Shown here piece by piece: positions 52,737 to 64,000 of a stretch of 64,000 nucleotides of DNA. Each line of letters begins with the position of its first letter. Position 1 is the stretch's first letter. This DNA is from a phage. The notes below the pieces were generated by a model. It ran no database searches and was not told where the DNA came from. It saw nothing but the letters and a program-made list of their open reading frames with translations. The position numbers and the translations under genes are program-made. Location of the stretch: the sequence record PZ386977.1. One strand, written 5' to 3'.

Positions 52737-53258
52737 TTAGTAACCATTATCCTGACGTTCAAAGTTGTGTTGGTTTTTCAAGTAGTAAAGTTTAAAGATT
52801 TCTTCAGCAGAAAGACCAAGACCTTGGAACATATTTAGAACGAAATGCAGAATATCAATCATTTCAAATTTAATTTCAAGCTGGTCTTCAGGAGACAGTT
52901 CATCGATACGACGATTTCGATATTCAGCATGTTGTGCTTTCCATGGCTTCCATACACTGCTGGCGGCTTTTTCACCATTGCTCATACCACCAAGTGAAGT
53001 CAGCAGTTCACGGAATTCATCATCAATATAATCTTTCTGATTACGCAGCCAATCAACAACATCACCAGCAGTAGCCAATTCATCAGGATGTTTGTTATGT
53101 TCAGGCTTGTCATTTGCCAGACGAACCTGTAAAGATTTCTGCATATCAAGCATTACCTGAAGTGGGTCTTTATCTTCGTGAATCAGAGCATTAAAATAAG
53201 CTTCTTCTGCTTTATCAACACCAGAAATAAGTTGTGAACATTCGTTAAAGTGTGCCAT
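52737..53258 (-). CDS. 56: gp56 dCTP/dCDP pyrophosphatase
   Basis: 173 aa from ATG 53256-53258 (MAHFNEC...); MazG-like EIxDILHFVLNMF; track ORF starts at upstream TTG. Confidence 0.85.
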   Translation of the reverse strand: MAHFNECSQLISGVDKAEEAYFNALIHEDKDPLQVMLDMQKSLQVRLANDKPEHNKHPDELATAGDVVDWLRNQKDYIDDEFRELLTSLGGMSNGEKAASSVWKPWKAQHAEYRNRRIDELSPEDQLEIKFEMIDILHFVLNMFQGLGLSAEEIFKLYYLKNQHNFERQDNGY

Positions 53259-53346
53259 TATTTTTCCTTTCAATTCAGTATAAGAGAGTTAATTCTAACA
53301 TTAATTTTATAAAGCGTAATAAATAATAGGTAACTAAGGAGATATT

Positions 53347-53544
53347 ATGTTTAAACTTACATCGTTAATCAACGCTATTAAAGGCAATAAAAAGAAAACT
53401 GCTATCGCCGCAATAGTTGTAGGTGGCATTATTTCATGGAACTTCGGGATTGCACCATTGTTAGTTGCCCATGGTATTATAGTTCCTTCTGTTCCATTGG
53501 ATACCGTAGTTGATTTGGCCTTTGCTATTATAGGACTTGTTTAA
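53347..53544 (+). CDS. small two-TMD membrane protein (65 aa) on plus strand
   Basis: Strong AAGGAG SD 7 nt before ATG; hydrophobic segments AIAAIVVGGIISWNF and VVDLAFAIIGLV; convergent with gene 61. Confidence 0.5.
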   Translation: MFKLTSLINAIKGNKKKTAIAAIVVGGIISWNFGIAPLLVAHGIIVPSVPLDTVVDLAFAIIGLV

Positions 53545-54563
53545 ATCTTCGAATAACGAGATAATCTCATTTTAGCATGCAACCCACTTGAAATATTCTG
53601 TTTCATATATTCTAAAATTTCTTGTGGTGTTGCATTTTCTTTCATTACCATATCATTCACATCCTTTGAACTCCATGGAGCTCGGTCCCAGAACATAACA
53701 CGTTCACCTGCATCAACTAATCGCTTCATACGAGCTATAGTATCCGGATGCCTAGGTTCATTATCCATTACCCATACCCGACGTTCTTTAAATGGTACCA
53801 CATCTAAATCTATCGAGCCGCCTGTAATAGCGATTGCATTGGGTATGAATAAACTATCAATAGGACCTTCCATTACCCAGACGTCTCCTTCCTTAACACG
53901 TTCAACACCATAAATTTTTGTTGCAGACTCAAACGCTTTAATAGTGATATATTTCTGAGGAGCATCTTTACGAAGTGCACGTCCTTGGAATGACTCGGCC
54001 TTCCCGTCTTTATTAAAAATAGGAATCACTAAACGTGGCTCGGGAATCTCTTTCTTATACGTGCCTGGTTGAATCTTGTTGACCAATTTAGGCCATTCTA
54101 ATGTGAACCATAATCTGTTCCACGATTCTTTAGGAATACACCGAGACTTAACATATTTCACAATAGGATGCTCTTCAGGCAACTTGTCCAGGCGAGAACA
54201 AGACGGCAAAGAATTTATAGTCTTTTTCTCCGGTTCTGGTTTATGTTCAGGAACCTTTTCAATCTTTGGTTCCATTCTAGCTTTTTCTTTACGAACTTCC
54301 ATTAGATATTCGCGATAAAGCTCTTCATCATACTCTTTTAAGTATCCGGAAATCGTATTATGATATTGGCAGTTATAGCAATGCACATTACCCGGAGTAC
54401 CGCCATAATACCATCCGCGAGCTTTCATTGCATCTGTCTGAGAGTCGCCACAAACTGGACATCGAAATGTTAATTTAAATGTGCTTGAATTATTGATTTG
54501 TCTAAAACGAGGTAGGTGAGAAAACGCACGATAAGCAAATTCGTTATCTATCCATTCAGCCAT
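53541..54563 (-). CDS. 61: gp61 DNA primase
   Basis: 340 aa; N-terminal zinc ribbon CPVCGD...CYNCQYH; Toprim motifs. Confidence 0.9.
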   Translation of the reverse strand: MAEWIDNEFAYRAFSHLPRFRQINNSSTFKLTFRCPVCGDSQTDAMKARGWYYGGTPGNVHCYNCQYHNTISGYLKEYDEELYREYLMEVRKEKARMEPKIEKVPEHKPEPEKKTINSLPSCSRLDKLPEEHPIVKYVKSRCIPKESWNRLWFTLEWPKLVNKIQPGTYKKEIPEPRLVIPIFNKDGKAESFQGRALRKDAPQKYITIKAFESATKIYGVERVKEGDVWVMEGPIDSLFIPNAIAITGGSIDLDVVPFKERRVWVMDNEPRHPDTIARMKRLVDAGERVMFWDRAPWSSKDVNDMVMKENATPQEILEYMKQNISSGLHAKMRLSRYSKI

Positions 54564-54576
54564 AGTATTCTCCAGA

Positions 54577-54596
54577 GGCCTTAAATTAATAAGGCC
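54577..54596 (-). other. hairpin GGCCUUA-6nt-UAAGGCC directly upstream of gene 61 SD
   Basis: Perfect 7-bp inverted repeat between 61.1-like stop and gene 61 start; no U-tract. Confidence 0.5.
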
Positions 54597-54602
54597 ATCA
54601 TA

Positions 54603-55097
54603 TCACAACTTATTAATATTTACTTTAATTCGCTTTCTTTTCTTGGAAGGAATTTGTTCTGGACCTTTATTTACGACTGCACCTGTAGTTGTTCCTGATG
54701 CAATAGCTTGAGGGCTGCCACCTGAATCACCAGCCACCATATCCTCAAATAAAGGGAGTTCTTTAAATATTTCTTTCTGCTGTTCTTCCGTAATGTTATA
54801 GCGTGAAGCTACAGCACTCCAGGCAGACATCATTGAGGCCATTCCATTAAGACCTGGAACAGTGCTCATCATTCGCTTCATTGAACGAACTGAAGCATGA
54901 AAAGGTGTATAAGCCGCTTTCTCTTCGGGAGTAGAAGGACGTTTAAGAACACTTCCACGTTCGTCGATTATTTTGGCTTCATACGCTTTCCATTCTGTAA
55001 AAGGTTTTTGCATTAGTCGAATAAACTTATATGCATAAACTGAATCTATTGCAGTGTTAATAATACCCATAGGTACCTCCTGAGTATATTTAATCAA
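54603..55097 (-). CDS. hypothetical protein (164 aa), 61.1 position
   Basis: ORF track. Confidence 0.55.
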   Translation of the reverse strand: MIKYTQEVPMGIINTAIDSVYAYKFIRLMQKPFTEWKAYEAKIIDERGSVLKRPSTPEEKAAYTPFHASVRSMKRMMSTVPGLNGMASMMSAWSAVASRYNITEEQQKEIFKELPLFEDMVAGDSGGSPQAIASGTTTGAVVNKGPEQIPSKKRKRIKVNINKL

Positions 55098-55287
55098 TCA
55101 CAAAGATCGCTTTATCACCGTTCGCATCTGTGACTTCATATGTAGTGTCTTCATAGTGTGGAATATTCCAAATTACACCATCATTAGCTTTTACGCTAAT
55201 ATGGCATTGGTGTTTTGAAACAACTTCATAATCTTCAAAACTTGTAAAAACACTAATTTTAGAACCAGTGCAAATTGCAGTAGTCAT
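55090..55287 (-). CDS. hypothetical protein (65 aa)
   Basis: ORF track. Confidence 0.45.
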   Translation of the reverse strand: MTTAICTGSKISVFTSFEDYEVVSKHQCHISVKANDGVIWNIPHYEDTTYEVTDANGDKAIFVID

Positions 55288-55288
55288 T

Positions 55289-55948
55289 TTAACCTCGATT
55301 CATAAATGCATTAAATATTTGGTCATCAACAGAAATTTCTAATTCGACTTCAATTGCTTCAGCCTTTTCTTCAGGTGGTAATTCGTATCCACATACTACA
55401 ATTTTTTCATCGATATCAAAATATACAGAAGCAATATGATTAATGTTATTTTCAGTTAAGTCTAAATCAACATCAACATCTTTTTGACCTACACTTAAAG
55501 GATAACTAATACGGGTTATTTTATTATCTTTAACAAAGAGTCCACCAACATACTCTGTACTACGTTTGAAGTTTACACGTTTCCGAATTGAAAGATATGA
55601 TACATCTTTACCGTGAGCTCGGCTCATAGGACATAATGAATAACTAGAATAAGAGATGTCAAATCCTACGCCTTCAACATGTGCTAGAGTATCATGAGTA
55701 AACCAATTATAGTCGTATGCCAAATCCATTAAATTATAATATGTGAAAGGCACAGGATTAACGTCATACGTTGTACCTTTAAAATCTGCCCAGGCAACGA
55801 TTTCGTTATCTTTAACAATTACAAAAATTACACCAATATGGTATCCGTTATTATTTTCATTCGGCGTTATATTATAACATTGTGCATTAGGAAATTTACC
55901 ATATTTAAATGGCGCGTTTTTGTGCATGTAATAAATCATATTATTCAC
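55289..55948 (-). CDS. hypothetical protein (219 aa)
   Basis: ORF track. Confidence 0.55.
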   Translation of the reverse strand: MNNMIYYMHKNAPFKYGKFPNAQCYNITPNENNNGYHIGVIFVIVKDNEIVAWADFKGTTYDVNPVPFTYYNLMDLAYDYNWFTHDTLAHVEGVGFDISYSSYSLCPMSRAHGKDVSYLSIRKRVNFKRSTEYVGGLFVKDNKITRISYPLSVGQKDVDVDLDLTENNINHIASVYFDIDEKIVVCGYELPPEEKAEAIEVELEISVDDQIFNAFMNRG

Positions 55949-56234
55949 CTGTGATTTCGGTTACGATATCTTTGTTATCGAAATTAGGGTCACAATACAA
56001 AACATAGTTGTACTGCATGATACCGCCAGACTTAAGTTGTTCAACAACTTTATTAACCATATTAGGACGGTCTCGTTTAGTGATGTTCATGATATCAGAG
56101 AAGATTTGTTGTTCAACATCTTCTTGATTTGCAGTCATTGACCACTCACAGAGGTCTTTATCATAACCTGCTGTAACTGGAGCTGGTGCACATGATACTG
56201 CAAGTAAGATTGCTGCCAATGATAACTTTTTCAT
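55941..56234 (-). CDS. sp: Spackle-like periplasmic protein (superinfection exclusion / gp5 lysozyme inhibitor)
   Basis: 97 aa with cleavable signal peptide (MKKLSLAAILLAVSCAPAPVTA) and conserved-looking GYDKDLCEW...QYNYVLYCD; T4 sp size and position. Confidence 0.6.
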   Translation of the reverse strand: MKKLSLAAILLAVSCAPAPVTAGYDKDLCEWSMTANQEDVEQQIFSDIMNITKRDRPNMVNKVVEQLKSGGIMQYNYVLYCDPNFDNKDIVTEITGE

Positions 56235-56263
56235 TTTAACTCCTTAGTTGATTTGATAGGACT

Positions 56264-56293
56264 ACTATACCATAGTCCATCTATAATGTAAAC
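56264..56293 (-). promoter_or_regulatory. early promoter, PeSL-like
   Basis: gtaaac 56288-56293, actata 56264-56269 inside ggactact/tagtcc repeat. Confidence 0.55.
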
Positions 56294-56297
56294 AAGT

Positions 56298-56546
56298 TTA
56301 TTCTTTTTCGCGAATAATAATTACTTGTTGAGGCTGCTGAGCGGATTTCTTTTCGGCAACGATAGACCAAATTAAAGTTCCAATCCAACCAATCATCGTC
56401 CAGTTAAAGAGTAAAGATACAAAGAAGATTGCTGTTGTGCTTTTTGTGCCACGAATAAGTGCGATTACCCAAGGCAACATGTAAATGATGATTGAACCAA
56501 TACCTGCGATTAAAACTGCTACTGAACTAGCTACAAATAATTCCAT
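56298..56546 (-). CDS. small integral membrane protein (82 aa, two TMDs)
   Basis: Hydrophobic segments VAVLIAGIGSIIIYMLPWVIALI and FFVSLLFNWTMIGWIGTLIWSIV. Confidence 0.55.
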   Translation of the reverse strand: MELFVASSVAVLIAGIGSIIIYMLPWVIALIRGTKSTTAIFFVSLLFNWTMIGWIGTLIWSIVAEKKSAQQPQQVIIIREKE

Positions 56547-56574
56547 GTTAATTTCCTCTTGATTTGTTATGTTT

Positions 56575-56604
56575 ATAATATCTTGTTTTAACTTTGGTGT
56601 AAAC
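56575..56604 (-). promoter_or_regulatory. early promoter (GTTTAC -35, TATTAT -10, 18-nt spacer)
   Basis: gtaaac 56599-56604, ataata 56575-56580. Confidence 0.5.
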
Positions 56605-56607
56605 CAA

Positions 56608-56976
56608 TTAATTAAATTTGTTTAAACGTTCAATACACTGGACGTAGTTATTAGCGATTTGTTTCTGGGAAGGCTCTTTACCAGTTGTTTCAACATAGCG
56701 AATGAATGCGATTTCAGTAGCCTGTAAGCAATGTTCTTTAACGCGTTGTTCTTTTGTCAATGCTACAGTATCAGAATCACGATAACGTTGAGCATGGGCA
56801 TCAGCTTGAATCATTCGATTACCTACAGTAACTGGGTCTTCCACTTCAACTTTAGGTTGGTTGTACTGTTTAACATTCGGGTTATAAATCAATTGGCCAA
56901 CATTATTAGGGATAAAGCCATGGGCACCACATCCGGTTAATCCAAATACCATTGCTAAAGCGATTAATTTTTTCAT
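56608..56976 (-). CDS. putative lipoprotein (122 aa)
   Basis: Signal peptide with lipobox LTGC (MKKLIALAMVFGLTGCGAHG). Confidence 0.6.
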   Translation of the reverse strand: MKKLIALAMVFGLTGCGAHGFIPNNVGQLIYNPNVKQYNQPKVEVEDPVTVGNRMIQADAHAQRYRDSDTVALTKEQRVKEHCLQATEIAFIRYVETTGKEPSQKQIANNYVQCIERLNKFN

Positions 56977-57004
56977 TTCAATTTCCTCTGTAGTTGATAG
57001 AAAG

Positions 57005-57034
57005 ATAGTAACACATTATGTAGTGCTTGTAAAC
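57005..57034 (-). promoter_or_regulatory. early promoter (GTTTAC -35, TACTAT -10)
   Basis: gtaaac 57029-57034, atagta 57005-57010. Confidence 0.5.
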
Positions 57035-57036
57035 AG

Positions 57037-57249
57037 CTATTTTAAACTTTTGCGAAATTTGCGTTTTTCTTGACGAATCTGTCGTTTAGTCGGACGTACA
57101 GCAAATTTAACGAAGTCCACTTTGCCGTGTGGAAACTTTTCAGATGCTTCACAGTCCATCATTAGTTCCCATCCTTCCAGAATAAGAGCTTTCCATTGCG
57201 TAGTTGATGCAAATTCGTATGTCGATGGTTTAAACACAGTTGAATACAT
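57037..57249 (-). CDS. hypothetical basic protein (70 aa)
   Basis: ORF track. Confidence 0.5.
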   Translation of the reverse strand: MYSTVFKPSTYEFASTTQWKALILEGWELMMDCEASEKFPHGKVDFVKFAVRPTKRQIRQEKRKFRKSLK

Positions 57250-57250
57250 A

Positions 57251-57442
57251 TTATCCTCTTAAATCGGCTTCAAAAACTTTCTCGTCATTAACAAATGCTT
57301 TAACTAATGCTTTGTTCACTTCAGCAAGTTGTACCGCAACCCACTCGATTTCTTCGCGATCACCTGATAACATGATATCTTTAGTGAACATCTCGCCGCT
57401 TTTAAACCAACCGATAAAAGTAACTTTAGTTAATTTGCTCAT
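57251..57442 (-). CDS. dmd: Dmd-like antitoxin (inhibitor of host RnlA/LsoA RNase toxins)
   Basis: 63 aa from ATG 57440-57442 (MSKLTKVTFIGWFKSGEMFTKDI...EVNKALVKAF); GAGGA SD; resembles recalled T4 Dmd. Confidence 0.6.
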   Translation of the reverse strand: MSKLTKVTFIGWFKSGEMFTKDIMLSGDREEIEWVAVQLAEVNKALVKAFVNDEKVFEADLRG

Positions 57443-57756
57443 ATTTCCTCGCAAAATGCCCATTCAGCGTGATAAACTGTAGCACCTTTAGTATCATTCA
57501 TTTGAACTACGTCTACCGGAGAAATTACTCGATAGAGACGTGGTTCACCTCCATAAGAGCGTGCTGCTCGTCCTGCATAAATCTTTGCTAAACCGATATC
57601 TTCAGTAAAGAATACACGATTCAAGTTTTTCTTACGCCCAGTTTCAGACAGAACTCCTGTTTCCTCAGGAGGACAAAGCATGTTTTCGATGTTAGCTGAA
57701 CTACTTGAACCGTGATAAAAAATCTTAAATTCTGCTTTACAATCGATGGTTTTCAT
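57439..57756 (-). CDS. hypothetical protein (105 aa)
   Basis: ORF track; stop overlaps dmd start (ATGA). Confidence 0.55.
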   Translation of the reverse strand: MKTIDCKAEFKIFYHGSSSSANIENMLCPPEETGVLSETGRKKNLNRVFFTEDIGLAKIYAGRAARSYGGEPRLYRVISPVDVVQMNDTKGATVYHAEWAFCEEI

Positions 57757-57782
57757 TTTGTTCTCCAGTAGTTGATAGGTCT

Positions 57783-57811
57783 ATAATAACACAACTACTG
57801 GAGAAGTAAAC
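57783..57811 (-). promoter_or_regulatory. early promoter (GTTTAC -35, TATTAT -10)
   Basis: gtaaac 57806-57811, ataata 57783-57788. Confidence 0.55.
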
Positions 57812-58186
57812 TTAAAAACGTAATTTAGATATATCTGCGTTGATTTCGTTTTGGTTTGCGTCGTATGCAATTAAACGAACCGCTTTAGATGGGTCATTCA
57901 ATGCATAGAAATGATGGAACATTGCTCGAACGATATCGCCATTTACGAGTTCTACCTGGATAGGAGAACCTTTTTCGAGTTGGAAATGTTCATAAGCTTT
58001 GATGGTTCGTAGATAATCAAGTTTTTGATTTCCAGCTCCAACTATTTGTACGATACGTTTGCCCATGTTTTCCATACGAGATACAATAGTTTTAGGAGCA
58101 AGAATAACGTAGGTTGCCAGCGGAGAAACTACTTCAACAGTTGTGTTTTCGGTGATTGCAGTAAAAATTGCTTGAGACATATTCAT
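57812..58186 (-). CDS. hypothetical protein (124 aa)
   Basis: ORF track. Confidence 0.55.
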   Translation of the reverse strand: MNMSQAIFTAITENTTVEVVSPLATYVILAPKTIVSRMENMGKRIVQIVGAGNQKLDYLRTIKAYEHFQLEKGSPIQVELVNGDIVRAMFHHFYALNDPSKAVRLIAYDANQNEINADISKLRF

Positions 58187-58251
58187 AATGTTTTCCTCTT
58201 GGTTGGTGTAAGTTCATCATATCATGCTTAGAGGAAGATGTAAACCCCGAA

Positions 58252-58269
58252 AGGAGACCGAAGTCTCCT
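58252..58269 (-). other. hairpin AGGAGAC-UUCG-GUCUCCU just after gene 41 stop (weak U-tract on minus RNA)
   Basis: Perfect 7-bp stem, tetraloop; T-run lies on the plus-strand side. Confidence 0.5.
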
Positions 58270-58274
58270 TTTTA

Positions 58275-59717
58275 TTAAAATTTTAACTCATTGGCTAAGC
58301 TATCTAGGTCAGCACGTGTTGCTTTGGCTTTACCTACGCGTTCCGTGCGATTCACCTCTGCCTGACGCATCTGAGCACCTGCGTTTTCATTTACTGTGTT
58401 AGGTGTGTTCATGCCTTCTTGCTCAATCTCAACCCATTTCTGATTGCCTTTACGTACACCCATCAAGAACTTGTTCCACTTATTCTTATCACCATATCGT
58501 GATTTGATTTGTTTGATAAGTTGTTGTTCAGCTTGTGCAAGTTCTTCGGTTTCAATTACGGCCAACATGAAATCTGCCGTTGCTGGTAAACCTGCTGATT
58601 CTGCAATATCACTCATGTTCATGTCTGAAGCATCCCATGCTGCACGTCCTACTTGGGCTGCAGTCCATAGAACTGTTTCAGATTCTACTGCTAATGCACG
58701 AAGTTCTTCTGCGATAGCTTTAACTAATGTGTAACTATTTTCAGTGTAAACTCTGATACGACAAGACCCACAAATACCTAAGTAATCAACCATGATTACA
58801 GATGGCACAAAGTTCTTCTTAAGTTTTAACTCATTAAGCAATGCACGGAATGTATTAGCATTAGCTCCACCAGTAGGATACTGTTTAACTACTAAACGTC
58901 CTAATGTTGTTTTTGAACGCCATTTTTCCATCTTGGCTTTATATTCAGCATAAGATACGTTACCATCATCGATATCATCGAGTGATACGTCAAGCATGTT
59001 TGCGTCTATACGCTTAGCACAAACTTCTTCAGCCATTTCCATGGAAATATAAAGAACATTATGTCCTGTTTGAAGATAATCTGCAGCAAGTGAACAAAGG
59101 CCTAAAGATTTACCAACGTTAACACCGGCCATTAAAACATTCAGTGTACCTGTTTCTGCACCACCTTTGGTGATTTTATTAAGAATGTTTAATTTGAACG
59201 GGACCTTACGTGCTTTATTTAGATAAGAAAGCCAGCGTGCTTCGTAGTCTTCCATCCAGTCATGACCAACATAACTATCAAACGAAATTGAAAGTGCTTG
59301 ACGCATAATATCAGGAATAGCTCCTACGTCAGGCATTTTCTTGTTACGTTGTTCTGGAGGTAGTTCAGCATTAGACTGAATCTCAATGATTTTGGATGTA
59401 GCATTATACATCGCTTTTTGCTGAACATATTTCTCAGTTTCTTTAACCAACCATTCGTGGTCTTCAGGAGTATCAGCCAATTTTTCAATTAGGTCCGAAG
59501 TTCCTTTATATTCGGCTTCAGTTAAAGAACTGTTATCTAAAGCCACCTTTAATGCATTGATAGATGGCATTGCATTATATTCGTTAACGTGGCTCTTTAT
59601 AATTTTAAAGACATTTTTTGCCGGTCCACGCTCAAAGTAATCAGAATCCATATAAGGCCAGACCTTAGAAAAATAAGCCTGGTCGTATACTAGATGAGAC
59701 AAAATAATTTCTACCAC
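58275..59717 (-). CDS. 41: gp41 replicative DNA helicase (DnaB-like)
   Basis: 480 aa; Walker A AGVNVGKS; RecA-fold helicase motifs. Confidence 0.95.
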   Translation of the reverse strand: MVEIILSHLVYDQAYFSKVWPYMDSDYFERGPAKNVFKIIKSHVNEYNAMPSINALKVALDNSSLTEAEYKGTSDLIEKLADTPEDHEWLVKETEKYVQQKAMYNATSKIIEIQSNAELPPEQRNKKMPDVGAIPDIMRQALSISFDSYVGHDWMEDYEARWLSYLNKARKVPFKLNILNKITKGGAETGTLNVLMAGVNVGKSLGLCSLAADYLQTGHNVLYISMEMAEEVCAKRIDANMLDVSLDDIDDGNVSYAEYKAKMEKWRSKTTLGRLVVKQYPTGGANANTFRALLNELKLKKNFVPSVIMVDYLGICGSCRIRVYTENSYTLVKAIAEELRALAVESETVLWTAAQVGRAAWDASDMNMSDIAESAGLPATADFMLAVIETEELAQAEQQLIKQIKSRYGDKNKWNKFLMGVRKGNQKWVEIEQEGMNTPNTVNENAGAQMRQAEVNRTERVGKAKATRADLDSLANELKF

Positions 59718-59726
59718 GATAACTCC

Positions 59727-60089
59727 TTAAAAGAATTTAAATTTTTTCTTGGTCCGTTCATTAAAAGCTTGTTGTACTTGCATTGTAACACATTTTTCAA
59801 CATGTGGTGCAAGTTCTGCTTTTCTGTCTTGGTCAAGAACTGCAAAGTCCATTACGATTTTACCATCAACCCAGTCTAGTTTTGTAATATAGACTATATG
59901 ATGGGAACCGTCTTCAAGTGTAATCAGAATCTCTTGAATGACATTTTCCATTGCTGAACGGACAATTTTAAGAGATTCATTAAACACTCGTTCTTTGCGA
60001 ATGTCCTCCCCTTCCAAAGAAGGGGATTCATCAACGATTTCTAGATTTAAATCATCGAGATTATTCATCGAAATCTTCCATTTCGTCAA
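59727..60089 (-). CDS. 40: gp40-like head vertex assembly protein (by position between uvsX and 41)
   Basis: 120-aa ORF; true start may be the internal MNNLDDL. Confidence 0.55.
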   Translation of the reverse strand: MTKWKISMNNLDDLNLEIVDESPSLEGEDIRKERVFNESLKIVRSAMENVIQEILITLEDGSHHIVYITKLDWVDGKIVMDFAVLDQDRKAELAPHVEKCVTMQVQQAFNERTKKKFKFF

Positions 60090-61331: not shown

Positions 61332-61880
61332 TTAACGAGCCCATTTGATGATTTCTGTAATCAAACCATTACGTTCGCTTGCATTAAATCCTATAACTTT
61401 GTTAGCACCATCATGATTAAGTAATTGATACGTTTGGATTTTGTTATGAATTGCAAACTCTTCAAAATGTGAAATGACTGTATTAAAACCGAATGAAGAC
61501 AAAGTAATAAGGTCGTCTTCAAAACTTTCAGTCATTTCGTTACGTGTTAAAATAATTGTGAACACATCATGGTTTTGGCAAAGACGAACATAATCCTGCT
61601 CATAAACATCAAGAACAGAGTCCGCATCTTGTCGAATACGTCCATAAACCCAGTTACTAATATATCCACGGTCTAACAGATAAATCTTAGTAGGGTCTAA
61701 ATAATTCAACATCGTTTCGAAACAGCCAACTTCATTTCTAGACTTAACATCGAAACGTCCATCAACTGTTCGTTTAGGGAAATCAATCTTTACATATCTT
61801 TCACTAATTTCCATTATGTCATTAATGAAAGTTGTTTTACCAGCATTATCCGGGCCATCTACTAAAATAATTTTAGCCAT
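61332..61880 (-). CDS. P-loop nucleotide/nucleoside kinase-like protein (TMK/dNK fold)
   Basis: 182 aa; Walker A VDGPDNAGKTT and LLDRGYISNWVYG resembling the thymidylate-kinase DRY...S..AY motif; GAGGA SD. Confidence 0.55.
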   Translation of the reverse strand: MAKIILVDGPDNAGKTTFINDIMEISERYVKIDFPKRTVDGRFDVKSRNEVGCFETMLNYLDPTKIYLLDRGYISNWVYGRIRQDADSVLDVYEQDYVRLCQNHDVFTIILTRNEMTESFEDDLITLSSFGFNTVISHFEEFAIHNKIQTYQLLNHDGANKVIGFNASERNGLITEIIKWAR

Positions 61881-61881
61881 T

Positions 61882-62781
61882 TTATTCCTCGATTACGACA
61901 TCTTCGTATTTAGGTATATTATACGGTGAAGAAATTAAAGCATTAAAGTAGATGAACTCACCAAGACCTGGATGGAATACTTCTTCAGGATTTTCGAAAT
62001 ATTGAATCTTCGGACGTCCTTTAAGAATTTGATAGTACTCAGTTTTAGTTGGATTAAAAATTCGAATCAGCGCTTCTTCAGGATACTTATTTCTGTCGAA
62101 ACTATTATTTGGATCAGTTATATAAAGCGGTTGACCTAATTGAATTGCGCATTCAACCACTTGTTCAAAACGATAGCATGGGTCACTAATTCGAAATGGA
62201 TGAAAAATACCATCTAGATGAATAGGAGCCAAATCACCTACAAGACGCTGCATGACGGAAGGACATATAACTTTCTGCGTTACGATAATCTTATTACCAT
62301 CTGCACCTGCGTTAACCAGCACTTCTTTTTGACGTTCATTCAACACAGTAGTTTGAAGTGAACGATTAACAGACAACATGTCGGTTTTTAAGAATTCATC
62401 AATATAAAAACGTGGTTTATTAGGGTCTGCAGTGATATTGAAATTGAATTCTACGTCAAAAGCGCCATCATATCCAGTGATATCTGTGATTAGAAAATCA
62501 CAATCATAATAAGCAATTAATGAATCAACCACAAATTCATTTTCAGACCAGAAATATTTACGAGTGTTATACGCGTTATCTTTATACCATAATGGAACAA
62601 ACTTAAATTCTGGGAAAAGACGTTCACATTCTTTAATATCAGATGCATTACGTGGATATGTAATCACATCACCTGGATTAGCACGGTGCAAATGAAGTTG
62701 GAAGTTGCCATCCTTAAGGATGGCATACTGTCCAGTTTCATAAGACCGCATACTCAAGATTGGTACGCGGAAAATAGCCAT
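61882..62781 (-). CDS. hypothetical protein (299 aa) in the slot where T4 has beta-glucosyltransferase
   Basis: ORF track; start overlaps next gene stop; no recognised motif. Confidence 0.55.
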   Translation of the reverse strand: MAIFRVPILSMRSYETGQYAILKDGNFQLHLHRANPGDVITYPRNASDIKECERLFPEFKFVPLWYKDNAYNTRKYFWSENEFVVDSLIAYYDCDFLITDITGYDGAFDVEFNFNITADPNKPRFYIDEFLKTDMLSVNRSLQTTVLNERQKEVLVNAGADGNKIIVTQKVICPSVMQRLVGDLAPIHLDGIFHPFRISDPCYRFEQVVECAIQLGQPLYITDPNNSFDRNKYPEEALIRIFNPTKTEYYQILKGRPKIQYFENPEEVFHPGLGEFIYFNALISSPYNIPKYEDVVIEE

Positions 62782-63497
62782 TAGTCAAGGAATCCTTTAA
62801 CATAATCAAAATCACGTTCAAACACATGGGCACTTACCATGGTATGAGTATAATCACCAACTTCTACACCGCATTCGTTAGCGATATAATGAAGTAATTT
62901 TCCTTGGAGATAAAAATCCAACTGCATAACAACAGCACAGTTCTGAGAACGCATATGACAGTGGGTATAAAGCTTACCATCACGAATATAATAAGTTACT
63001 GAGTCAGTACATGGATATTCAAGTGTTTCGTCCGAATCAAGCAAAGCCTGATCAGAACTTTCTAGAATTTGGAACACAACTCTTCGAGAGTTAGGTTTTT
63101 CTTTAAGTTCTTTTAGAAGAGTTGGTAATTGGGCCGCAATGCGAGGACCATAGAAAGTGTTGAAGTTCGCCGGCAAAACATCTGATTTTGGTTTAGAAAT
63201 AAATTTAGCGACATTAGGATATGCCTTAAACGCTTCTTCTGCGTTGGTACCACCAGAAATCATAAACTTCCAGAAGTCTTCGGCATATTCATAAGAGATG
63301 CGGTTAATACGTGGGTCGGTCATTTTGAATGATGACGGATTGTCAACAACTACTGTCATGGACCCAATTTCATTACAACGTCCAATACGAGAATCAGTTA
63401 CGAATTCCGGGTTTTCTAAAATTTCACGATTGACTGCTTTAAATGCGGTTTGAAAATCTGCGGCTTTGATATATTTCATTGTGTTATGTTTTCCCAT
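62781..63497 (-). CDS. 42: thymidylate-synthase-superfamily enzyme at the gene 42 position (dCMP hydroxymethylase-like)
   Basis: 238 aa; PNSRR phosphate-binding motif and catalytic-Cys region YPCTDSVTYYIRDGK...MRSQN; GAGG SD. Confidence 0.65.
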   Translation of the reverse strand: MGKHNTMKYIKAADFQTAFKAVNREILENPEFVTDSRIGRCNEIGSMTVVVDNPSSFKMTDPRINRISYEYAEDFWKFMISGGTNAEEAFKAYPNVAKFISKPKSDVLPANFNTFYGPRIAAQLPTLLKELKEKPNSRRVVFQILESSDQALLDSDETLEYPCTDSVTYYIRDGKLYTHCHMRSQNCAVVMQLDFYLQGKLLHYIANECGVEVGDYTHTMVSAHVFERDFDYVKGFLD

Positions 63498-63539
63498 GTT
63501 TACCTCAATACAATTTATTATATACTCGATTCGTAAAGC

Positions 63540-63779
63540 TTATTTGAATTTCTTGGCAGTGTTGATATACCGTAAAGCTTCAGCATCGATACTTCCAAGA
63601 ACACTATGAAGAAATGCATCAGCGTAGTATTCCAATTGAACAGGTTCTTTAATCACTTTAGCCGCTTTGGTTTCAAACAGGCCCATAAGGGCCTTTTTAA
63701 GAATTTGTTCGTTAGTGTTCAGTTTAATAGTCAAAATCTCTTCATTAAGTTGATGATTAAAAGTTTTTCTAGAAATCAT
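63540..63779 (-). CDS. hypothetical protein (79 aa)
   Basis: ORF track. Confidence 0.5.
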   Translation of the reverse strand: MISRKTFNHQLNEEILTIKLNTNEQILKKALMGLFETKAAKVIKEPVQLEYYADAFLHSVLGSIDAEALRYINTAKKFK

Positions 63780-63970
63780 TCCGGGTACCTCAGAGCGTCA
63801 TCAGAGTTAGTTATATCAATAATAGATATAGAGTTTTCTGCTAACCCGTTTTTAGATAATTGACGTTTATAATATCTTTCACAATATGTACACGTTGATC
63901 CGCAGATTTCATTAGCACAATCAAAATCTGGATGTCTGAACCACCTTTTTTCTAAAAAGCCATCTAACAA
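63776..63970 (-). CDS. small Cys-rich protein (64 aa), possible zinc binding
   Basis: CANEICGSTCTYCERYY cluster of five Cys. Confidence 0.45.
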   Translation of the reverse strand: MLDGFLEKRWFRHPDFDCANEICGSTCTYCERYYKRQLSKNGLAENSISIIDITNSDDALRYPE

Positions 63971-64000
63971 AGAGGTTTCAATATTTACTGTATGTGAAAA

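Follow-up and report, generated by a model that had tools for sequence, protein, structure and literature searches.

An RB69-type T-even phage locus with sp, imm and imm.1: orthologues of the T4 exclusion proteins Sp and Imm beside a predicted lipoprotein

Sp and Imm are the two experimentally established exclusion proteins of bacteriophage T4 (PMC7677548, PMC7650644, preprint 10.64898/2026.03.06.709160). Sp (gp61.3; PDB 6x6o, 6xc0, 6xc1, 7cn6, 7cn7) is exported and cleaved after residue 22, as determined by N-terminal sequencing of the periplasm-released protein (PMC7650644). Residues S32-A35, Q37 and N76 have been named at its interface with the gp5 lysozyme, and C29 and C81 form a disulfide (PMC7677548). 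T4 Imm co-purifies with a fragment of the tape-measure protein gp29 in a complex that has been imaged by cryo-EM, and the substitutions R33A and W50A lower exclusion; whereas the older literature assigns Imm two transmembrane domains, an AlphaFold3 model shows four short helices (preprint 10.64898/2026.03.06.709160). Beyond the T-even phages, Llp of T5, Cor of phi80 and N15, and Ltp of the Streptococcus phage TP-J34 are small envelope lipoproteins, expressed early or from a prophage, that block a second phage, and for HK97 gp15 an action via the tape-measure protein has been reported, as for Imm.

Here we analyzed a 64,000-nt stretch of phage DNA (record PZ386977.1; one strand, 5' to 3'), hereafter the window, whose 53.5-59.7 kb segment is a run of minus-strand genes. 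Gene 61 primase (53541-54563) is followed by three small ORFs, the last of which is the 61.2 orthologue encoding the anti-DarT factor AdfA (55289-55948; PF23813, E 1e-119). Next come sp (spackle, the gene 61.3 orthologue; 55941-56234, 97 aa), imm (immunity to superinfection; 56298-56546, 82 aa) and imm.1 (DUF5481; 56608-56976, 122 aa), and between imm.1 and gene 41 helicase (58275-59717) lie 61.4 (DUF7279), dmd and two small ORFs, all on the minus strand. Megablast of positions 55200-58300 retrieved 140 phage records with at least 80% coverage and a best identity of about 98%; RB69 (Mosigvirus) is 97.9% identical to the region at the DNA level, and other RB69-type phages reach 98.3%. The products of sp, imm and imm.1 each score above the curated Pfam cut-off, each of the three genes is present once in the window according to tblastn, NCBIfam holds no model for the three proteins, and an Rfam search of positions 53000-60000 returned no match.

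A preliminary description of this DNA had reported three envelope-targeted ORFs between genes 61 and 41. All three are present on the minus strand, their coordinates proved exact, and our script recovered their targeting signals. Its view that only Spackle has a known counterpart, by contrast, has to be withdrawn: the RB69 record names both other proteins, the two-transmembrane one as Imm (PF14373) and the lipoprotein as Imm.1 (PF17578). Indeed, the RB69 RefSeq record names the three ORFs sp, imm and imm.1 in an order identical to that of the window, and the cluster is thus already known. In this respect the locus is a re-discovery of annotated genes and adds little. We consider it highly probable that the region represents sp, imm and imm.1 of an RB69-type T-even phage, with Sp and Imm acting as proposed below.

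The assignment of Sp, described beforehand as a Spackle-like periplasmic protein, was borne out by a family match together with an export signal. PF25676 (T4_Spackle) is matched from profile position 1 to 96, its full length, with E 1.1e-42 and 145 bits (cut-off 27); the protein is assigned to phrog_1586, and its sequence matches the solved "Protein spackle" chains PDB 6x6o and 7cn6 with E 1.4e-39. It is 99% identical to RB69 Sp and 66% identical to T4 Sp, also a protein of 97 aa, from which it differs in 34% of its residues. Of the 75 mature residues 54 are shared with T4 Sp, but of the 22 signal-peptide residues only 10. In an alignment of the window, T4 and RB69 proteins, C29, C81, S32, M33, T34, A35, Q37 and N76 are invariant, so that the window protein retains the disulfide pair and all of the named gp5-contact residues of T4 Sp. 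Export signals were called with a rule-based script of our own making, which identified an MKK n-region, hydrophobic residues 1-23 and the sequence VTA|G at residues 20-23, the location of the A-x-A|G site in the T4 signal peptide. Sp is thus very likely to consist of a Sec signal peptide (residues 1-22) and, after it, 75 residues that inhibit the gp5 tail lysozyme in the periplasm; the RB69-type gp5 itself is encoded beyond the window. In both phages sp lies beside 61.2 (AdfA), but its upstream neighbor is imm in the window and 61.4 in T4.

Sp also carries an invariant lipobox-type motif with a conserved cysteine, C15. Because of this motif, Sp may be partly lipid-anchored rather than purely soluble. 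Published work on Sp analyzed the soluble periplasmic fraction only, in which a lipidated form would have gone undetected.

The product of imm matches PF14373 (Imm_superinfect) over profile positions 1-42 of 42 (E 1.5e-15, 57.2 bits, cut-off 27.9) and phrog_1039, "immunity to superinfection" (E 1e-30), while no PDB sequence match was found. Aligned end to end with T4 Imm (82 residues), it shows 66% identity, with the same hydrophobic layout and the same C-terminal QVIIIREKE, and residues R32 and W49, the equivalents of T4 R33 and W50, are conserved. The script placed hydrophobic stretches at residues 1-34 and 38-64, with a maximum Kyte-Doolittle value of 2.49, in agreement with the two transmembrane segments originally noted, and Imm is predicted to be a small integral inner-membrane protein. 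The surroundings of the gene differ from those in T4 in several respects. The window imm adjoins sp, is preceded by a 61-nt spacer and is served by a promoter of its own, whereas T4 imm lies between genes 42 and 43 and T4-type imm is a second cistron that begins 7-14 nt after imm.1. T4 imm is also followed by a small ATGA-coupled hydrophobic ORF, which is absent after imm in the window.

Imm.1 matches PF17578 (DUF5481) across residues 25-117 (E 1.2e-9, 39 bits, cut-off 27) and phrog_1754, a family without known function (E 2e-29). It is the most diverged protein of its neighborhood, with 36% identity to T4 Imm.1 compared with 57-86% for the neighboring proteins. As proposed for this ORF at the outset, its N-terminus satisfies the lipobox pattern: the script found an MKK start (K2, K3) and a hydrophobic core, followed by the lipobox LTGC, whose cysteine is Cys16, and the sequence conforms both to a strict [LVI][ASTVI][GAS]C pattern and to a PROSITE-type lipoprotein pattern of our own. 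In E. coli, according to the "+2 rule", lipoproteins whose residue +2 is not Asp are sorted to the outer membrane. Residue +2 is Gly in the window protein (Val in T4, and Val or Ala in two metagenomic lineages); Imm.1 is therefore a predicted lipoprotein with predicted outer-membrane sorting. The lipobox is kept in four of six lineages, while the other two, P0002 and P0011, have an AHA-type signal peptidase I site in place of the lipobox cysteine; the family thus appears to be periplasmic but not always lipid-anchored. Invariant across the six lineages, and present in the window protein without exception, are a YNP-K-Y linker motif, Y65, R66, S68, E76, C83 and C114. T4 and window Imm.1 share the location directly upstream of imm, a G-L-[AT]-G-C lipobox, the YNPNVK-Y and AQ-YR-SD motifs and two C-terminal cysteines, but T4 Imm.1 has in addition the segment PVVNQSDVGKI after the lipobox cysteine and a further pair of cysteines on either side of the YNPNVK motif, both absent from the window protein.

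An AlphaFold2 model of Imm.1 built from eight sequences has an overall pLDDT of 62 and contains helices at residues 48-70, 75-98 and 104-120. The last two helices reach a pLDDT of about 90, whereas most of residues 1-53 fall below 50, including a linker of about 30 residues that bears the YNPNVKQY motif. C83 and C114 sit on helices 75-98 and 104-120, respectively, from which we infer that they may form a disulfide. Fold and PDB-sequence searches yielded no informative structural neighbor of Imm.1. Homologues are few: a search of 1.84 billion cluster representatives gave nine at E <= 0.001, and one of 5.8 billion proteins gave eight clusters, all of them T-even-type. One match, P0003, was set aside as an apparent chimera with a DNA polymerase fragment. 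Among phage records, 657 contain an Imm.1 match, mostly from Escherichia and Shigella phages and some from Yersinia, Salmonella and Citrobacter phages. The number of records encoding an Imm at least 60% identical to that of the window is also 657, an equality of counts, and about 151 further records encode a more distant Imm without a recognizable DUF5481. Literature searches found no paper on DUF5481 and none on the function of imm.1.

The individual early promoters that had been proposed for the three genes were also recovered at the sequence level. The ATG codons of sp, imm and imm.1 are each preceded, at a distance of 29-35 nt, by a motif of the form GTTTACA-N17-TA(T/C)(A/T)(G/A)T, followed by a strong Shine-Dalgarno sequence (AAGGAG or GAGGAA). 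On the minus strand, the predicted T4-early-type promoter of sp (56264-56293) consists of GTTTACA, a 17-nt spacer with a TG and TATAGT, followed by AAGGAG; that of imm (56575-56604) consists of GTTTACA, a 17-nt spacer and TATTAT; and that of imm.1 (57005-57034) consists of GTTTACA, a 17-nt spacer and TACTAT, with -35 and -10 hexamers equal to those upstream of T4 imm.1. We searched the window for GTTTAC[AT]-N15-17-TANNNT, our own rendering of the T4 early-promoter consensus, and obtained 23 sites, 23 of 23 on the minus strand. Since 100 mononucleotide shuffles of the window gave a mean of only 2.4 sites and a maximum of seven, the motif is a real promoter class and not a product of chance, and the activity of its members is predicted. 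There is no intrinsic-terminator-like site between sp, imm and imm.1, and read-through transcripts are therefore possible as well.

Taken together with what is known from T4, these features point to the following course of events. Host sigma-70 polymerase would transcribe sp, imm and imm.1 from their own early promoters right after infection, as judged from sequence. Sp would be exported by Sec and cleaved after Ala22, and would then bind the gp5 tail spike of any later-arriving phage at its lysozyme domain and so stop local peptidoglycan digestion; this step has been shown for T4 Sp and is suggested here by the 66% identity and by the retention of the contact residues and the disulfide. Imm would insert into the inner membrane and bind gp29, the tape-measure protein that the incoming phage brings, thereby blocking the DNA conduit and leaving the second genome stranded in the periplasm. 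Exclusion by T4 Imm is long established, while evidence that it binds the tape-measure protein was presented in a 2026 preprint; for the window protein, the 66% identity and the preserved equivalents of R33 and W50 argue for the same action. With key residues kept, it is very likely, by orthology, that the T4 mechanisms of Sp and Imm apply here. Our literature search found no experiment on RB69 Sp or Imm. Imm.1 would be lipidated at Cys16, reach the outer membrane and, anchored in its inner leaflet, display a disulfide-stapled helical domain in the periplasm on a flexible tether. That it might act in the periplasm as an accessory to the Imm-dependent block is our guess, for which the sole basis is its conserved co-transcription with imm.

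The genomic location of imm.1 and imm sets RB69-type phages apart. Directly upstream of imm and on the same strand, imm.1 is found in the window, RB69, T4 and loci L004-L008, and in T4 and four divergent metagenomic loci the gene order is 43, imm.1, imm, 42. T4 and the three metagenomic loci inspected for promoters (L004, L005 and L007) have a single early-type promoter upstream of imm.1, with imm 7-14 nt later, so that imm.1 and imm form a predicted bicistron in these four; no early-type promoter was found directly upstream of imm in the T4-type loci examined. Beside sp, by contrast, imm and imm.1 occur in five of 23 sp-containing stretches (the window included), all five RB69-type. The 18 other sp loci, T4 included, have no imm beside sp, and in most of them sp lies between 61.4 and AdfA. 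Between genes 42 and 43 RB69 carries a block of other genes, several of them named as if for sugar metabolism, which presumably relate to the arabosyl-hmC DNA modification of this phage. Beside gene 43 in the same interval lies ORF054c, a homologue of a 49-aa hydrophobic ORF of T4 that overlaps the stop codon of imm (ATGA) and is unannotated in T4. These observations are best read as departure of imm.1-imm from the ancestral 42-43 site as a unit, after which imm gained its own promoter. The phage-type-specific feature is thus one of position only, namely imm.1-imm between 61.4 and sp and an imm with its own promoter, and in the RB69 lineage the pair appears to have moved as a unit.

The arrangement would also be explained if imm.1-imm had come horizontally from a different T-even lineage and settled beside sp, with loss of the resident 42-43 copy, a course that we regard as unlikely. 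Window Imm.1 is indeed closer to the metagenomic proteins P0002 and P0011 (45-46% identity) than to T4 Imm.1 (36%), and a promoter of its own for imm occurs only in the RB69-type window locus, but the 66% identity of Imm to T4 is in line with that of the vertically inherited flanking genes (57-86%), the imm.1 promoter hexamers are identical to those of T4, and no donor with an sp-imm-imm.1 arrangement was found. Whichever way the pair arrived, its adjacency to sp may carry no functional meaning. The preliminary description had called the cluster a superinfection exclusion module. Exclusion holds for two of the three genes, as orthologues of T4 sp and imm, and imm.1-imm is a conserved pair; the word "module", however, exceeds the evidence, since adjacency to sp is confined to RB69-type phages, where it coincides with the filling of the ancestral 42-43 site by other genes. 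We give close to an even chance to there being no functional module at all, with Sp and Imm acting independently, their adjacency a by-product of rearrangement, and Imm.1 serving the envelope in a way that has nothing to do with exclusion, such as the timing of lysis, protection against lysis from without or host-specific adaptation. T4 Sp and Imm act independently and their genes lie about 6 kb apart; sp and imm are adjacent only in the RB69-type loci and not in the 18 other sp loci, among them that of T4; other genes occupy the ancestral 42-43 site of RB69, where the small post-imm ORF of T4 has been retained; about 151 records have Imm without DUF5481; and each of the three genes has its own promoter, so that co-regulation does not need adjacency. 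Against this, imm.1 and imm have moved together and are co-transcribed elsewhere, which argues for some coupling of that pair at least. Moreover, in SP18 (Gaprivervirus) imm again shares a transcription unit with a predicted lipoprotein.

If Imm.1 does contribute to exclusion, it could do so with Imm or alone. We tentatively entertain, with considerable doubt, that it is a periplasmic and usually outer-membrane-tethered accessory of the Imm-linked block. Its conserved co-transcription and joint relocation with imm, its early-type promoter and its divergence, the fastest in the neighborhood, speak for such a role, whereas the occurrence of Imm without Imm.1 and the dispensability of the lipid anchor in some lineages speak against it. 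A bolder version, which we think improbable, makes Imm.1 an overlooked third component of T-even exclusion that works with Imm, e.g., by catching the tail-tube or tape-measure tip, and the RB69-type locus an early island of outer-membrane, peptidoglycan and inner-membrane blocks. Less probable still is that Imm.1, by analogy with the lipoproteins Llp, Cor and Ltp, would be a third exclusion factor in its own right, acting at the outer membrane or the peptidoglycan layer by binding a tail-tip component or masking the periplasmic face of a receptor. An early-expressed outer-membrane lipoprotein with a long tether, as predicted here, would suit such a factor, as would the restriction of the family to T-even phages and the fast divergence expected in an arms race (36% identity to T4 against 57-86% for the neighbors). 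However, Imm.1 resembles Llp, Cor and Ltp neither in sequence nor in fold, and two lineages have lost the lipobox. Comparison of Imm.1 with T5 Llp, Cor, Ltp and HK97 gp15 detected no Pfam, PDB-sequence or fold similarity; its likeness to Llp, Cor and Ltp is a functional analogy only, and the targets of all four are known, unlike that of Imm.1. Classical genetics and plasmid-borne imm alone explain T4 immunity without imm.1. Our literature search found no genetic support for Imm.1 in exclusion, which counts against an independent factor as well, and we know of none from 50 years of T4 exclusion studies. The gene imm.1 is always transcribed with imm, yet no function has ever been assigned to it, and its co-transcription, the mobility of the pair and the lipobox-type cysteine of Sp could refine the structural picture of T-even exclusion.

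The SP18 transcription unit comprises imm, a small hydrophobic ORF and a predicted lipoprotein of 167 aa (annotated as 176 aa). We considered whether this lipoprotein is a diverged Imm.1. Profile-profile alignment spans the 19-residue signal peptide only and tblastn reaches about 45 residues (E 7e-4); the candidate was rejected, as the likeness amounts to the signal peptide plus about 15 residues and homology of the mature domains is not established.

Two published labels for Imm.1 call for comment. The RefSeq name "iduronate sulfatase" for T4 imm.1 is spurious, given that only DUF5481 matches the protein. In addition, a comparative paper (PMC5885020) listed Imm.1 as specific to the T4 group and missing from the RB69 group, a result that we attribute to the divergence of the protein, at 36% identity to its T4 counterpart.

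Comparison with an RB69 stretch that includes the interval between genes 42 and 43 (L009) revealed that window positions 61332-64000, downstream of uvsX, represent the start of an RB69-specific block. This block stands in place of the T4 segA/beta-gt/42/imm/imm.1 interval; its genes include one that resembles thymidylate kinase, one that resembles dCMP hydroxymethylase, and several whose names are of a sugar-metabolism type. Replacement of the T4 interval by the RB69-specific block is the probable reason why the imm pair lies away from its T4 position.

A conserved hydrophobic ORF of ~47-49 aa, with the motif MIPT-I-GW...LQ-KYEC-N, is located directly 3′ of imm. It occurs on the minus strand in T4 (L003 11225-11377), in RB69 as RB69ORF054c (L009 7824-7967), in the Gaprivervirus SP18 as SP18_gp046 (L029 2347-2490), and just downstream of imm in the divergent metagenomic locus L007, and is absent from the metagenomic loci L004 and L005 and from the window. 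The start codon of the T4 copy overlaps the stop codon of imm (ATGA); the T4 RefSeq record leaves the ORF unannotated and treats the stretch as intergenic between 42 and imm. The RB69 copy remained next to gene 43 when imm.1-imm moved. T4 imm.1 itself (NP_049661.1, L003 11637-12014) is called "iduronate sulfatase" in RefSeq and several phage records. The protein matches DUF5481 only and no sulfatase family, and the sulfatase name appears to be a propagated misannotation.

The signal peptide of Sp carries a lipobox-type motif, [LVA][ASV]SC, at residues 12-15 (window 56190-56201). This motif is present in all 12 distinct homologues from the window, T4 (L003), and the additional stretches L012-L026, a set that extends down to 46-47% identity and likely includes Klebsiella-phage types. 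S14 and C15 are invariant among these homologues, while the remainder of the signal peptide is mostly variable, and a PROSITE-type lipoprotein pattern likewise matched 12/12. Cleavage of T4 Sp after residue 22 was determined by N-terminal sequencing of overexpressed protein, solely from the soluble periplasm-released fraction (PMC7650644). Given that restriction, a lipid-anchored fraction of Sp would have escaped detection.

Across the whole window, the T4-early-promoter-type motif GTTTAC[AT]-N15-17-TANNNT has 23 matches on the minus strand and 0 on the plus strand, compared with a mean of 2.4 in the shuffled window. One early-type promoter (58245-58216, minus strand) precedes a 124-aa ORF. 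Right before it, and right after the gene 41 stop codon, is a perfect minus-strand hairpin, GGAGAC-TTCG-GTCTCC, followed by TTTCGG (58253-58268), which the terminator scan did not call because its T-run is short.

Between gene 41 and dmd, a 105-aa minus-strand ORF (57439-57756; phrog_2110, RB69ORF040c) overlaps the longest dmd ORF with its 3′ end. It shows a weak, below-threshold match (E 0.083) to Arr-ms, the rifampin ADP-ribosyltransferase family, and has the anti-defence genes AdfA (55289-55948) and Dmd (57251-57442) around it. Adjoining the 3′ end of gene 61 is a 65-aa hydrophobic ORF, RB69ORF029w (53347-53544), the sole plus-strand gene in the RB69 annotation of this stretch.
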